Shown piece by piece: positions 54,058 to 58,115 of a stretch of DNA of 64,000 nucleotides. The notes beneath the pieces are model-generated. The model saw only the letters and a list, made by a program, of their open reading frames with translations. It was not told the origin of the DNA and did no database searches. This DNA is from an uncultured Candidatus Peribacteria bacterium (GTDB taxonomy: Bacteria > Patescibacteriota > Gracilibacteria > RBG-16-42-10), in NCBI GenBank assembly GCA_964506115.1, contig CAZDKI010000004.1:13280-77279 (forward strand), given 5' to 3'. A program made the translations under genes and the position numbers. Numbering within the stretch: position 1 is the stretch's first letter; each line of letters opens with the position of its first letter.

Positions 54058-54132
54058 GCCACTTTAGCTCAATGGTAGAGCAATCGCTTTGTAAGCGAAA
54101 GGTTGTCGGTTCAAGTCCGACAAGTGGCTCCA
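54058..54132 (+). tRNA. tRNA-Thr (anticodon UGU), CCA encoded
   Basis: GCCACTT acceptor, GCTC-AATGGTA-GAGC D-arm, ATCGC-TTTGTAA-GCGAA anticodon arm, GTCGG-TTCAAGT-CCGAC T-arm, AAGTGGC-T-CCA. Confidence 0.9.
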
Positions 54133-54240
54133 CGAGTCCTCACATCAGTGAGGCGAGTCTCTTTCCTATTTCCTAGCTCCTTTTCCTCATCACACAGCCT
54201 ATCGGACTCAAGGATAGAGGAACCAGGAAACAGGAAATAA
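54128..54240 (+). repeat. cassette leader copy 1: CTCCACGAGT-hairpin-GCGAGTCT plus heptad hairpin
   Basis: ctccacgagtcctcacatcagtgaggcgagtct (54128-60) starts inside the tRNA-Thr 3' end. The arms tctttcc tatttcc tagctcc ttttcctc (54160-88) and ggataga ggaacca ggaaaca ggaaata (54212-40) follow. Confidence 0.6.
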
Positions 54241-54298
54241 TCGCTCAAGGAAAATTTCATGAATTAGTTACCTATAGTGTAGTAACTAATTTTTAGTT

Positions 54299-54658
54299 AT
54301 GTTCATTTTCGAAACATTTCCTGTGTACCAAAAGGCTGAAGCTATATACTCTGAGTTATTATTAATTCTACCTTCTCTCAAAGATAAAGTGCTGGCGGAT
54401 CAATTGCGTCGTGCTATGACTAGTATTGTGCTAAATATTGCAGAAGGCAGTGGGAAGTTTAGTCCAAAGGAAAAGAAAAACTATTATTTGATGTCTAGAG
54501 CATCTGTAAATGAATGTGTGGCTGTTTTAAGGCTGTTGTATCGTCAAACAGTAATTTCGGAACAGCAGTTAACTTTGTGGAAAAAAGCATTCCTTATAAT
54601 CCATAAAATGCTGAGTGGGATGATCAAAAGCTTTTCTGAGAGCACCACAGATACTTAG
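54299..54658 (+). CDS. four-helix-bundle protein (23S rRNA intervening-sequence / Avd-like family)
   Basis: FPVYQKAEAIY ... SIVLNIAEGSGKFSPKEKKNYYLMSRASVNEC matches the family signature (NIAEG ... GS..E). Confidence 0.85.
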   Translation: MFIFETFPVYQKAEAIYSELLLILPSLKDKVLADQLRRAMTSIVLNIAEGSGKFSPKEKKNYYLMSRASVNECVAVLRLLYRQTVISEQQLTLWKKAFLIIHKMLSGMIKSFSESTTDT

Positions 54659-54673
54659 ATTTTTGCTAGCGAT

Positions 54674-54694
54674 CCTGGTCTCTTTCCTACCAGG
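54674..54694. terminator. short hairpin between convergent genes
   Basis: cctggt-ctctttcct-accagg. The loop reuses the ctctttcct word of the cassette leader. Confidence 0.5.
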
Positions 54695-54708
54695 GACGAG
54701 TAGAAGCT

Positions 54709-55215
54709 TCAATTCCAATCTCTTGCCATAAATCTGCCTTTTTCACCACTAAGCATCTGTACGGCTTTTTTAACATTACGGGTTAATGCCTCTTCTGATT
54801 TTAGGAATGAAAAATAACGCAAAATTTCTTTTTGGCGACTAGGCGATAACTTTTTCCAATTGTTTTTGACCGTTGCCTCGCGGTCTAATGCTGCCTGAAA
54901 TAATGGTGGTATTGGATGCATGGGACCATTGTGGTAGGTGTGATCAAATTCAATACTTACTTCGATCATATCACCAACTTTTGTTTTAGATGCTTTGCGT
55001 ACATCTCCATACAAATACAAATAAAAACTACCGTCACCGACAGGCATCATGTTGATGTGCCAAGGTGATTTAGGCTCACCATTTACTTGAATAGTGACTG
55101 GCATTGGTTTTCGCCAGTTTTCTTGAAGCATCTTTGCTAACTTTTGGCTAACCAATACATACGGGTTGCCATCACGAATTTCAATGGTGCCTGAAAACTG
55201 CATACAGATAGACAT
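54709..55215 (-). CDS. DUF1905 / YdeI-OmpD-associated family protein
   Basis: The N-terminal half (GNPYVLVSQKLAKML...VTIQVNGEP...VGDMIEVSIEFD) looks like DUF1905. The C-terminal LSPSRQKEILRYFSFLKSEEALTRNVKKAV looks like the YdeI tail. Confidence 0.6.
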   Translation of the reverse strand: MSICMQFSGTIEIRDGNPYVLVSQKLAKMLQENWRKPMPVTIQVNGEPKSPWHINMMPVGDGSFYLYLYGDVRKASKTKVGDMIEVSIEFDHTYHNGPMHPIPPLFQAALDREATVKNNWKKLSPSRQKEILRYFSFLKSEEALTRNVKKAVQMLSGEKGRFMARDWN

Positions 55216-55392
55216 AGTTTGTTGCTACTTTACCATGTTTTAGTTCATTGTTATTCAATTTTTCATGCTCTCTGCCAGGCTTCTGAATTATCACTGTAGT
55301 GATGTTGACGCTTTAATCATTCCTCTACTGATTTTGGCTTTAACCTATTTTCAGTACTAAAGTGTTCTGTTATAATAATATGATTATTATCA

Positions 55393-55599
55393 ATGACAAT
55401 CATGAGCTATTATAGTCAGCATCTGCCTCATTACATGGAAGCAGATCCTAGAGACCAAGTCCGTAGCACACACGAATTAGATCATAAGCTGACAAGGGCG
55501 AGTTTGCTTGAAGGTTTGAGAATAGCAATAAAGAATAGGGAGGAGGCACTTGCATTGATGCATCGTGATTCTATTGCAAAGGTAATGAGCGACCGGTGA
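55393..55599 (+). CDS. hypothetical small protein
   Basis: 68-aa ORF with no motif. Confidence 0.25.
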   Translation: MTIMSYYSQHLPHYMEADPRDQVRSTHELDHKLTRASLLEGLRIAIKNREEALALMHRDSIAKVMSDR

Positions 55600-55862: not shown

Positions 55863-56225
55863 ATGAGAGTTCAACAGTTGATTATCGCGGTTCTTTTGAC
55901 TTTCGTTGGTACTTTGTTTTGTGGCACTTTGATGACCTTGCCCGGCGTCTATGCCAGTGGGCCTGTGCACTGTGAAACTAGTTCCAATCATGAGCATAGT
56001 CATGAGCCATGTCATGCTGACAGCTATGACCATCATCAGTTGGGATCTTATACCTTGCAGAAGAACAATCTGACTATTGGTAATAGTGGTGAGCTCGCGC
56101 GAGTCGTTCCTTATCAAGCTACAGATAGTATTGTTCCTTTACGACAATCGACCTATCAGCAAGCCGGCAGGTATGAGCTCGTGCGCTATCATACAAAACA
56201 TATTCGAGTGCGGAAGAAAGAATGA
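55863..56225 (+). CDS. secreted His/Cys-rich small protein (putative metal binding)
   Basis: Signal-like LIIAVLLTFVGTLFCGTLMTLPGVYA, then HCETSSNHEHSHEPCHADSYDHHQ. Confidence 0.4.
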   Translation: MRVQQLIIAVLLTFVGTLFCGTLMTLPGVYASGPVHCETSSNHEHSHEPCHADSYDHHQLGSYTLQKNNLTIGNSGELARVVPYQATDSIVPLRQSTYQQAGRYELVRYHTKHIRVRKKE

Positions 56226-56304
56226 GTGGTAGATAAAGTCCTCTCCCAGTGCTCTAGGTAGCAAACCCTAGTGCCAGTTTTTATTTACCTTACTTTACAT
56301 TTTT

Positions 56305-57249
56305 ATGAAAACGAAAGCTCTTATAACCAGCATGGCACTCATTGTAGTACTTTCTGGTTGTGCTTCAGATCAAAACCAGCCAATTGTAACCAACGACCAG
56401 GTGCCCCAGTATTGTTCTTCAATCGGTGAGCCGGTGACTACTCCAGTGATCCAAAGTCATCGCTCTTACTGTATGCAATCAAGCATAGCAGATACGATCT
56501 ATACTGCCCAAACACCTTTAGCGTATGCATTCTCAATTGTTGATGATCTGGGCAAGGTAGTGAAAGATTTTGCAATCACCCATACCAAACCAATGCATAT
56601 CATTGTGGTCAGAAAGGACCTCACTGGTTTTCAACATCTACATCCAGACTTCAATCAAAATACCGGTATCTTTACTTTGTCAGAGATTACTTTTCCAACT
56701 GAAGGTCAGTACCGTATTTTCGCTGACTTTGCTGCTAGTGGGGGACAAATAGACGCAATGGCAATGCCGATGACCACTACTATTTTCCAAGATGTTCAGG
56801 TAGGTAAAACATATGAGCCTCAACCAATTGGTACCCAAGAAAGAAGCAAGACAATTGCGGGCTATCAAGTACGTCTAGATACTGAGCCACTGATTGTCTC
56901 TGGCAAAGAAACAACACTGACATTTGATTTGAAGCAAAATGGCAAAGCTGTGACTGATCTTCAATCATACCTTGGTGCTCTTGGTCATACAGTGATTCTG
57001 CGTGAGGGTAGCCTCGACTTTATTCATGCTCATCCATTAGAGGCTGTGTCACAACCACAAACAGGTAAGGTGAATTTTATGGTAGATTTTCCAGAAGCTG
57101 GTACCTACAAAGTGTTCACTCAATTTCAGAAGGATGGAAAGGTGCTGACTACAGATTTTGTCATTACTGTGGGTGAAGGTAAAGAGAATCGCAGCACAAT
57201 GGATATGAATAATATGTCAGGAAAGGACCACTCAATGATGGGACACTAA
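56305..57249 (+). CDS. lipoprotein with two H-x-H-P repeat domains and Met/His-rich tail (putative metal binding)
   Basis: Lipobox VLSGC. Internal repeat MHIIVVRKDLTGFQHLHPDF / GHTVILREGSLDFIHAHPLE. C-terminal MDMNNMSGKDHSMMGH. Confidence 0.55.
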   Translation: MKTKALITSMALIVVLSGCASDQNQPIVTNDQVPQYCSSIGEPVTTPVIQSHRSYCMQSSIADTIYTAQTPLAYAFSIVDDLGKVVKDFAITHTKPMHIIVVRKDLTGFQHLHPDFNQNTGIFTLSEITFPTEGQYRIFADFAASGGQIDAMAMPMTTTIFQDVQVGKTYEPQPIGTQERSKTIAGYQVRLDTEPLIVSGKETTLTFDLKQNGKAVTDLQSYLGALGHTVILREGSLDFIHAHPLEAVSQPQTGKVNFMVDFPEAGTYKVFTQFQKDGKVLTTDFVITVGEGKENRSTMDMNNMSGKDHSMMGH

Positions 57250-57260
57250 TTGTCATTATT

Positions 57261-57296
57261 CACTGGCCTCGTGGCGTTACTGTTACGAGGTCAGTG
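57261..57296 (+). terminator. hairpin after the lipoprotein gene
   Basis: cactggcctcgt - ggcgttactgtt - acgaggtcagtg, a 12-bp stem with one G.T pair. Confidence 0.55.
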
Positions 57297-57522
57297 GTAA
57301 TAAACCTATAAGCTCTCCCCCTATAGCATCTATTGACTGCTAACATCATCCTTAGTGCTTTACTCATTTACTATGAGAGATTATCTAATGTTTAGCTTAG
57401 GTGGTGTTCTTTGAGGATTACCTCATCAATACATTTATTTCTAACACCATTCCACTTTACCGATCGCTGTCTTAAGAGCTCGATATGAAAATGGTATAGA
57501 AAGTTACTTTGTTTACATTCTT

Positions 57523-57648
57523 CTCCACGAGTCCTCGTACCAACGGGGCGAGTCTTATTGCTGATTTTTTAATCCTTAAACTGTTTTCACTTCGGCAGGG
57601 TACCTTTCGGGACTCGAAGAAATAAGGAAATTAGCAATAAGTAATAAT
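57523..57648 (+). repeat. cassette leader copy 2
   Basis: ctccacgagtcctcgtaccaacggggcgagtct (57523-55). The arms cttattgctgattttttaatcctta (57554-78) and gaagaaataaggaaattagcaataag (57616-41) follow. cttattgct/agcaataag and tcctta/taagga are complementary. Confidence 0.6.
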
Positions 57649-57752
57649 ATGACACCATTGGCTTAGTAAGGGTTTCAGCTTCTTTCACTATCTCAAGTTG
57701 AGACTGATTTCATTTTTTACCTGTTATGGTGATTGGTAATTAATGAACCTTT

Positions 57753-58115
57753 ATGTTTATTTTTGAAACGTTTCCTGTATATCAGAGAGCTGTTCAGTTT
57801 TATAAAGATTTCCTTTTTTTGATAAAAAGTAAAACAATCGAAAAGTATAATGCTGATCAGTTAAAAAGAGCACTTTTGAGTATTCTCTTAAATATTGCTG
57901 AGGGGAGTGGTAAATATAGTTATAAAGAAAAGAAAAACTTCTATTTAATTGCCAGAGGCTCAGCACATGAGAGTGCTGCGTTGATAAATGTGTTATTTCT
58001 GAGTGAAATTATAAGCTCTGAACAATCTAATGTATGGAAAGAACATCTTGTTGTCATTAGCAAAATGCTTAGTGGAATGATTAAGAGCCTTAGGAAGAAA
58101 AATGTGAATGATTAA
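57753..58115 (+). CDS. four-helix-bundle protein (23S rRNA intervening-sequence / Avd-like family), paralog of 54299
   Basis: MFIFETFPVYQ N-terminus identical to the first copy. SILLNIAEGSGKYSYKEKKNFYLIARGSAHES. Confidence 0.85.
   Translation: MFIFETFPVYQRAVQFYKDFLFLIKSKTIEKYNADQLKRALLSILLNIAEGSGKYSYKEKKNFYLIARGSAHESAALINVLFLSEIISSEQSNVWKEHLVVISKMLSGMIKSLRKKNVND

Follow-up and report, generated by a model that had tools for sequence, protein, structure and literature searches.

On balance, and with moderate confidence, we interpret a 64,000-nucleotide stretch of the genome of an uncultured Candidatus Peribacteria bacterium (assembly GCA_964506115.1, contig CAZDKI010000004.1, positions 13,280 to 77,279 of the forward strand; here called the window) as holding two paralogous members of a family of ~0.55- to 0.6-kb promoter-less cassettes that colonize stable-RNA units, a tRNA counterpart of the rRNA intervening sequence (IVS). 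Each cassette consists of a folded 5′ module of three hairpins (H1, H2, and H3), an open reading frame (ORF) of the PF05635 four-helix-bundle family, and a short tail. It sits between an upstream unit ending in CTCCA, either tRNA-Thr or a non-tRNA repeat that we call U, and the former downstream sequence of that unit, which in related genomes is a conserved, terminator-like motif (motif iii). The comparisons below demonstrate how the cassettes are built, that they recur after tRNA-Thr, tRNA-Leu, and U in Candidatus Peribacteria-like genomes, that their sites occur empty and filled with a short duplicated core, and that this branch of PF05635 genes is linked to tRNA genes.

RESULTS

Two diverged cassettes share a perfectly conserved junction block and a folded leader

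A preliminary description of this DNA, made from the sequence alone, had reported an exact repeat at the end of tRNA-Thr and again at a second site. We detected CCACGAGTCCTC-N10-GGCGAGTCT exactly twice in the 64 kb (54130 to 54160 and 57525 to 57555), against an expectation of 0 from 100 dinucleotide shuffles with up to 3 mismatches permitted, and CGAGTC-N6-30-CGAGTC was restricted to the same two sites. Around this perfectly conserved 31-nt block, all other sequence has diverged. The block also contains a point at which an independent assembly (Logan SRR13208889) of the same genome breaks: position 1 of its sequence L119 corresponds to window position 57547, consistent with the block acting as a repeat in the assembly graph.

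The N10 segment and its flanks form H1, with a compensatory change between the copies (CCTCAC/GTGAGG versus CCTCG/CGGGG). The arms of the longer hairpin H2 (~90 nt) are unrelated in sequence between the copies and complementary within each, with folding z scores of -3.3 (copy 1) and -2.6 (copy 2). The H2 loop carries GGACTCA in copy 1 (54204 to 54210), complementary to CGAGTCC at 54133 to 54139, and GGACTCG in copy 2 (57610 to 57616), which is fully complementary to CGAGTCC at 57528 to 57534. At the position of H3, relatives have a different sequence in which the pairing is retained.

The hairpin, the loop motif, and the four-helix-bundle gene previously described after each copy were all verified, the hairpins by folding and the genes by profile search. 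The two proteins are 51% identical and both start MFIFETFPVYQ; they score 75.2 and 73.8 bits against PF05635 (Pfam cutoff, 33.8; E about 1e-20) and 73.7 and 75.4 bits against TIGR02436 (cutoff, 24). The nearest solved structures detectable by sequence are 2GSC and 2RLD only, both uncharacterized. The blocks had been taken as the footprint of site-specific integration bracketing a 3-kb islet; the diverged proteins and the unrelated hairpin arms identify them instead as the left ends of two paralogous cassettes. These measure ~0.6 kb (54133 to 54717 and 57528 to 58131), with both right ends placed by analogy with relatives. The tail of cassette 1, GCTTCAATTCCA, resembles the tail GCTTCCATTCTTCTCCA of the cassette in a related locus, L003. 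In 10 kb of genome added beyond the window, no further cassette, U copy, or tRNA was present.

At the gathering score, Rfam 15 matched only tRNA and no leader family in the window and 20 related loci, and a permissive scan (E up to 10) of 53900 to 58300 returned only spurious microRNA-type matches to the long hairpin. As these scans gave nothing relevant, we rejected the idea that the leader holds a ribozyme or another structured RNA already known. A MAFFT/RNAalifold alignment of eight leaders placed the long hairpin in the wrong register and was not used for covariation counts. A 49-amino-acid (aa) ATG-initiated ORF also runs antisense through leader 1 into the tRNA (54111 to 54260, minus strand). 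It is probably not a gene, because its frame has stop codons in the related loci L003 and L006.

The same cassette is found behind different partners, and its sites occur empty and filled

PF05635 is a very large family, known from rRNA intervening sequences and as the relative of the Avd protein of diversity-generating retroelements (DGRs); to our knowledge, neither a function nor a way of spreading has been assigned to it outside DGRs. A pattern scan of 185,579 species genomes with the leader gave 21 matches, 17 of which were chance occurrences in high-GC genomes; true leader matches came from only three Candidate Phyla Radiation (CPR) metagenome-assembled genomes (MAGs), two labeled Peribacteria and one Gracilibacteria. 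The leader motif is accordingly not confined to this genome; the preliminary description had named such confinement as a refutation of its own reading. We compared these and further related loci, some of them traced from close homologs of gene 1 (86 to 89% identity) and all numbered with the prefix L, with the window.

The left partner of the leader varies among relatives. In L001 (a Candidatus Peribacteria MAG), L003, and L006, the leader is preceded by U with no adjoining tRNA; U is specific to Peribacteria, and ~215 to 250 nt upstream of the same leader in these three loci match window positions 57313 to 57527. The junction of U and leader in window copy 2 is therefore present in three other genomes, which counts against att repeats around an islet. 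In L030 (Candidatus Peribacteria), the closest relative, a kinase gene, a 168-aa gene, tRNA-Thr, the leader, and the four-helix-bundle gene are syntenic with window positions 50004 to 54643, and the synteny stops right after the four-helix-bundle gene. L030 has the cassette and lacks the islet, a further point against integration of an islet between att repeats. A single cassette type is shared by window cassette 1 (behind tRNA-Thr) and by L001 and L003 (behind U), and another by L006 (behind U) and L030 (behind tRNA-Thr). In the more distant genome L010, the order is tRNA-Leu-CCA/CGAGTCCTC..GAGGACGAGTCT, long hairpin, and gene. The leader and gene are a discrete, recurrent unit at tRNA 3′ ends, as had been proposed, found in relatives behind tRNA-Thr, tRNA-Leu, and U. 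The module also stands alone: tRNA-Thr of L027 is followed by a window-type leader without the four-helix-bundle gene, and tRNA-Thr of L001 by a variant solo module whose loop, GCGAGTTCG, is the complement of the module's first 9 nt.

Empty and filled sites were found for U. Motif iii is a conserved, terminator-like sequence, TTTTCGTCCTTCTG(C/A)GAGTCAG.TGGGCGT(C)TTTT, placed after CCA. In L033 (position 1835) and L117, the site is empty and reads U...TCTTCTCCA/motif iii. In L003, it is filled and reads U...TCTTCTCCA/CGAGTCC...gene...GCTTCCATTCTTCTCCA/motif iii, with the right junction alike in L006 and L030, and motif iii also follows the solo module in L001. The tail in L003 repeats 15/17 nt of those that end U. 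In sequence, the two L003 junctions look like attL and attR around an insert of ~547 bp with the core TTCTCCA.

Repeats of a tRNA end around an insert were found in other lineages. In L041, ~0.7 kb in which the four-helix-bundle gene is the sole content is enclosed by a repeat of ~97 nt, made up of trailer sequence and 21 nt of tRNA-Ser; in L052, a 43-nt tRNA-Val repeat surrounds a 2.4-kb islet (2892 to 5322). The repeat of this islet is the 3′ half of tRNA-Val. Within the islet lie a module and a four-helix-bundle gene, as well as ORFs of 75 aa and 442 aa, the product of the latter resembling a TIR domain to the eye; no integrase is present. In L037 (2796 to 3600), a four-helix-bundle gene lies between the tRNA-Pro isoacceptor genes GGG and CGG; these have their 3′ half in common and the same trailer module after each. 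The earlier suggestion of a mobile or processed cassette attached to a tRNA is supported and generalized.

These comparisons bear on the possibility that a ~3.4-kb element, with the islet genes as cargo, was integrated site-specifically into the tRNA-Thr 3′ end and left the 33-nt repeats as its attL and attR. The repeats do start at the last 5 nt of the tRNA, as the preliminary description had it, but CTCCA is the whole of their tRNA part, and in copy 2 these 5 nt are the last bases of U and are unrelated to any tRNA fragment. Copy 2 is preceded by U without an adjoining tRNA, as in L001, L003, and L006. Past the block, the hairpin arms and genes are diverged paralogs rather than a duplicated att site, and no integrase was found among the 29 window ORFs tested. 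The islet genes are missing from the related tRNA-Thr loci fetched, a point in favor of this model, but L001 has the layout of tRNA-Thr (here ~2.1 kb upstream) and U-cassette with entirely different genes between. Even with true tRNA-end repeats around inserts in other lineages, we regard this explanation as very improbable for the window. Judged from the sequences, the window copies are separated by 2.6 kb that form a slot for variable genes, with tRNA-Thr on one side and U on the other, and not the body of an element bounded by the repeats.

Relatives of the four-helix-bundle genes are linked to same-strand tRNA genes

To sample the family more widely, we used a protein-guided scan of metagenomes, which yielded 80 loci encoding relatives at 36 to 54% identity; 55 distinct loci had at least 400 nt of upstream sequence. 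A same-strand tRNA ends 86 to 373 nt before the start codon in 29 of these 55 loci (53%), against ~0.8% predicted from the background tRNA density of these loci. The linked tRNAs are Leu (13), Ser (6), Pro (3), and Asn (2), with one each of Val, Glu, Arg, Met, and His; tRNAs with a long variable arm, Leu and Ser, dominate the set (L037 to L116). This branch of PF05635 is tied to same-strand tRNA 3′ ends. We found no description of tRNA-linked PF05635 genes or of the trailer module in the literature, an absence that is no proof of novelty.

The trailer module is shared by many tRNAs

The folded leader follows a plan that many tRNA trailers share. Segment A begins at the tRNA end or no more than a few bases away; A′, the complement of A, pairs with it to form H1; a long X/X′ hairpin follows, with one pyrimidine-rich and one purine-rich arm; and a second copy of A′ (A″) lies at the 3′ side of the loop. 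An exact 7-mer H1 together with the distal copy occurs in 16 of 60 nonredundant trailers (dinucleotide shuffles: mean, 0.08; maximum, 2). The leader is not peculiar to the four-helix-bundle gene: the same architecture follows other tRNAs, both in relatives (e.g., tRNA-Gly in L052) and in the window, where tRNA-Pro(GGG) and tRNA-Glu have trailer modules without this gene (Table 1). After H1, the tRNA-Pro(GGG) module has a long pyrimidine/purine hairpin with a loop ending GCGCGATCG. This trailer architecture is absent from Rfam, and no description of it was found in the literature. In lineages without a tRNA-encoded CCA, the module begins right after the tRNA gene and has no CCA. We do not favor retro-mobility by template switching onto tRNA CCA ends, as the modules lack CCA where the tRNA genes do.

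The module might be an RNA switch, in which the 5′ segment pairs with either the H1 arm or the H2-loop copy (a pseudoknot) and so controls tRNA 3′ maturation or stability as well as translation, with its conservation due to that function alone. That the three-way complementarity is kept with entirely different sequences at many loci fits such a switch, as do the position of H1 flush with the mature tRNA end and that of H3 abutting the start codon. We nonetheless consider a switch acting alone quite improbable: G·U pairs show no strand bias, the order of purine and pyrimidine arms is reversed in one trailer (L052), no nucleotides are conserved across lineages and Rfam gives no match, and a switch leaves the empty and filled sites unexplained. 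An RNA switch can coexist with the cassette explanation.

A second possibility, which we regard as unlikely, is that the four-helix-bundle gene is an ordinary resident gene behind the lineage's normal tRNA terminator or processing module, the two copies being an old segmental duplication with nothing mobile involved. Near-identical cassettes with unrelated flanks are difficult to reconcile with residence, given tRNA-Thr (window and L027) versus U (L001 and L003) in one case and tRNA-Thr (L030) versus U (L006) in another; so are the empty and filled U sites with their duplicated core, the tRNA-end repeats around the inserts in L041 and L052, and a 31-nt block perfectly conserved amid diverged surroundings. 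The points in its favor are that the module follows many tRNAs that lack the gene, that cassette 1 is syntenic with L030, that the copies are old by their protein identity (51%), and that no mobility gene was found among the 29 ORFs.

The U repeat carries a coding-like frame that the cassettes interrupt

U is present in four copies within 12 kb of L006 and four within 8 kb of L033. On the minus strand, U and motif iii together hold a frame of ~60 codons, ..KRRPxDSQKDEN/GEECKQSNFLYHFHIELLRQRSVKWNG.RN..IDEV.IKEH..*, whose substitutions are coding-like (pN/pS of 0.24 at a pS of 0.60); the other five frames hold 9 to 29 stop codons. A start codon is missing in most U copies, and the frame runs across the junction of U and motif iii, still with no conserved start. 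The cassettes break this frame at one fixed codon, ...DEN/GEEC....

The U frame had no match in Pfam or NCBIfam and only spurious repeat matches among 1.84 billion protein representatives; among 5.8 billion proteins, the single match was a 77-aa ORF called over another U copy. We rejected the ORF-like segment of U as a fragment of a known protein on the results of these searches. U as a structured RNA was also rejected, given a weak consensus fold (-9.5 kcal/mol) with no covariation.

The arrayed copies of U in L033 (1700 to 7500) and L006 (1 to 7700) are all in one orientation, each before a different accessory-type gene. The genes after them encode a Fic-like 386-aa protein, a 222-aa outer-membrane-like protein, and a 283-aa ortholog of window 62938 to 63759; also among them is a 218-aa gene paired with an M23 peptidase gene, the pair being duplicated in tandem. 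Each array looks like a cassette array or hypervariable region.

The preliminary description also drew a link to DGRs; on a fuller version of this idea, the window would hold a remnant or part of a DGR, with the two proteins as Avd accessory proteins and the start-less segment of U as the template repeat (TR). PF05635 is the family that Avd resembles (PMC10053308), and U does have a start-less ORF-like segment next to the gene. U is antisense to the gene, however, and the differences among its copies are mostly of a synonymous type and not adenine specific. The NCBIfam Avd model (NF033474) gave 15.3 bits for gene 1, against a cutoff of 80, and no match for gene 2; none of the 29 ORFs tested encodes a reverse transcriptase (RT). 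The window is without a pair of the TR and variable repeat (VR) type, as its direct repeats of at least 35 nt are the leader pair and small intergenic repeats only. We find a DGR remnant barely credible.

The interval between the copies and other features of the window

Profile searches agree with the earlier assignment of a YdeI/DUF1905 gene between the copies. The label of "metal-binding secreted" proteins given to two of the other islet ORFs was not confirmed, a subthreshold match to YtkA being the only one found. The features of the window are collected in Table 1.

Outside the two cassettes, a direct repeat of ~120 nt (44104 to 44222 and 44481 to 44606) lies on either side of tRNA-Met (44354 to 44429, minus strand). 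Within this repeat are GTTGAAA heptad words and a 51-nt core, in which the two copies have 86% identity. An intergenic repeat of ~40 to 50 nt, AATTCATCCTGAGCG...CGAAGGATC, occurs with its reverse complement at 14747 to 14785, 40096 to 40134, 44172 to 44222, and 44556 to 44606 and resembles repetitive extragenic palindromes or miniature inverted-repeat transposable elements.

TABLE 1 Features of the two cassettes, their partners, the interval between them, and two further trailer modules (window coordinates)
Feature	Position	Strand	Basis or remark
tRNA-Thr(UGU), encoded CCA; left partner of cassette 1	54058-54132	+	ARAGORN; Rfam tRNA, 72.3 bits
Junction block copy 1, CTCCA / CGAGTCC-hairpin-GGCGAGTCT; cassette proper from 54133	54128-54160	+	
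Small hairpin H1 copy 1, CCTCAC atca GTGAGG	54138-54153	+	Fold; compensatory differences in copy 2, L006/L030/L010
Long hairpin H2 copy 1; 5′ arm pyrimidine-rich, 3′ arm purine-rich	54155-54246	+	Fold, inverted repeat
Hairpin H3 directly before the start codon, AATTAGTTAC...GTAACTAATT	54262-54291	+	Sequence; pairing kept in relatives
Four-helix-bundle gene 1, 119 aa, PF05635/TIGR02436	54299-54658	+	Profile searches; homologs of 86-89% identity in relatives
Cassette 1 tail: hairpin 54674-54694, then GCTTCAATTCCA at 54706-54717	54659-54717	+	Resembles GCTTCCATTCTTCTCCA; right boundary inferred
Variable interval (islet): YdeI/DUF1905 gene and three ORFs	54709-57249		Without counterpart in the related loci fetched
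YdeI/DUF1905 gene	54709-55215	-	Profile search
Islet ORFs	55393-55599, 55863-56225, 56305-57249		
U repeat, ~215 nt, multicopy, ending ...TTCTTCTCCA; left partner of cassette 2	57313-57527	+	Comparison with relatives
ORF-like segment within U, RGEECKQSNFLYHFHIELLRQRSVKWNGVRNKCIDEVILKEHHLS*, without start codon	57395-57535	-	Coding-type substitution pattern
Junction block copy 2; cassette proper from 57528	57523-57555	+	
Small hairpin H1 copy 2, CCTCG taccaa CGGGG	57533-57548	+	Fold
Long hairpin H2 copy 2	57554-57641	+	Fold, inverted repeat
Four-helix-bundle gene 2, 120 aa, PF05635/TIGR02436	57753-58115	+	Profile searches
Cassette 2 tail to GATTCCA (58125-58131), then degenerate motif-iii-like TTTTCTGGGGTTTCTTCAGTC	58116-58160	+	Boundary inferred
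tRNA-Pro(GGG) trailer module, H1 CGATCGC gatca GCGATCG flush with CCA; no four-helix-bundle gene	28075-28190	+	
tRNA-Glu trailer module, H1 TTCCGC acat GCGGAA plus long hairpin; looser example, no four-helix-bundle gene	22650-22756	-	

DISCUSSION

The cassette explanation suggests how these genes might be expressed and moved. In what was a weak scan, neither ORF had a predicted sigma-70-like promoter separating it from the tRNA or U, and the cassette lies between a stable-RNA gene and a terminator-like sequence; for these reasons, transcription by read-through from the tRNA or U promoter, followed by release through processing, is probable. Release from the tRNA would require an endonucleolytic cut at CCA, in the long hairpin, or both, by analogy with RNase III on the rRNA IVS. 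Movement or exchange may proceed by recombination at the short ...CTCCA / CGAGTCC...GCGAGTC junction, driven either by a recombinase acting in trans or by homologous exchange between 31-nt blocks.

Several observations weigh against the cassette explanation. Both window cassettes have a degenerate right end, so that their boundaries rest on analogy with relatives; tests of 29 window ORFs revealed no integrase, recombinase, transposase, or RT, in agreement with the earlier remark that no integrase is present; and for about half of the relatives, the 400 nt upstream contain no tRNA. The first hairpin of Bacteroidetes-like loci, which precedes the gene, has a T-run and is terminator-like, which misfits simple read-through. 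A bias in G·U pairing is also absent: the sense strand gives the better fold for 31 trailers and the antisense strand for 26, with 197 versus 204 G·U pairs. A purely RNA-level role is for this reason not favored, and a DNA-level role is equally possible.

The cassettes may matter beyond this genome. The tRNA tie (53% of sampled loci), the conserved module, and the insertion polymorphism in CPR genomes link the rRNA IVS phenomenon to tRNA genes. They also provide testable handles: the junctions are defined, TTCTCCA is a candidate core, GCGAGTC is a candidate word for protein binding, and the module has its three-way complementarity. The trailer architecture may in addition be of consequence for tRNA 3′ maturation or recombination in reduced genomes. 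A bolder proposal, which we put forward as a speculation and judge unlikely, is that PF05635 "IVS protein" genes in general are widespread micro-cassettes, without integrase or promoter, that home to the 3′ ends of stable RNAs (tRNAs, rRNA helices, and mimics of tRNA ends such as U) by structure-guided recombination, with the site set by the module and its junction-complementary loop copy. If true, it would explain the spread of rRNA intervening sequences and so answer a question that dates from about 1990.

Comparison with known systems

The closest parallel is the 23S or 16S rRNA IVS ("S23p / 23S_rRNA_IVP") of Leptospira, Coxiella, and CPR bacteria. In the rRNA IVS, a gene of the same family has heptameric repeats upstream of the ORF, and RNase III cuts at a 28-bp stem (PMC4990558); PF05635 genes are also found in rRNA insertions of CPR bacteria (PMC11270868). 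IVS elements have a sporadic, selfish-looking distribution, and the function of their protein is unknown (PMC4990558, PMC11270868). The window cassettes are alike in placing a PF05635 gene within a stable-RNA transcription unit, in the adjoining long stem (~25 to 30 bp, the size of an RNase III substrate), in the heptamer-like words upstream of the ORF, and in a sporadic, selfish-looking distribution without a mobility gene. In contrast to the IVS, their host is a tRNA or a tRNA-end-like repeat and not an rRNA helix, and Rfam detected no rRNA in the window. Their ORF lies downstream of the hairpin, whereas the IVS ORF lies inside a stem formed by the ends of the element; we found no inverted repeat pairing the leader with the 3′ flank, and the long hairpin closes upstream of the ORF. 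The module of the window cassettes also adds the three-way complementarity of 5′ segment, H1 3′ arm, and H2 loop.

Islands that target tRNA genes by means of a tyrosine integrase are similar in being flush with or inside the tRNA 3′ end. Among the relatives, L041 and L052 repeat 21 and 43 nt, respectively, of a tRNA 3′ end around an insert, and L012 to L014 hold an integrase island at the same tRNA fragment. The window cassettes differ from such islands in their size (~0.6 kb) and single gene, in having no integrase, and in sharing 5 nt with the tRNA where ~15 nt or more, at both ends of the element, would mark such an island; for them, the non-tRNA repeat U is an equally good left partner.

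With integron cassettes, the window elements share the form of promoter-less single-gene units that need an upstream promoter, the occurrence of empty and filled sites, and an imperfect palindrome of the size of a recombination site, in which the fold is kept and not the sequence and which has no RNA-type strand bias. In contrast, their palindrome lies upstream of the ORF, they are inserted at the 3′ end of a tRNA or of U, and no R″/R′ core (GTTRRRY), intI, or attI was seen, although no systematic search for core sites was made. The resemblance to integrons is one of logic only. The Avd proteins of DGRs belong to a homologous four-helix-bundle fold family, but the window proteins miss the Avd-specific model, and no RT, TR, or VR was found. 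By analogy, the element would most resemble, in the way it works, an IVS moved into the trailer of a tRNA and also a cassette without a promoter.

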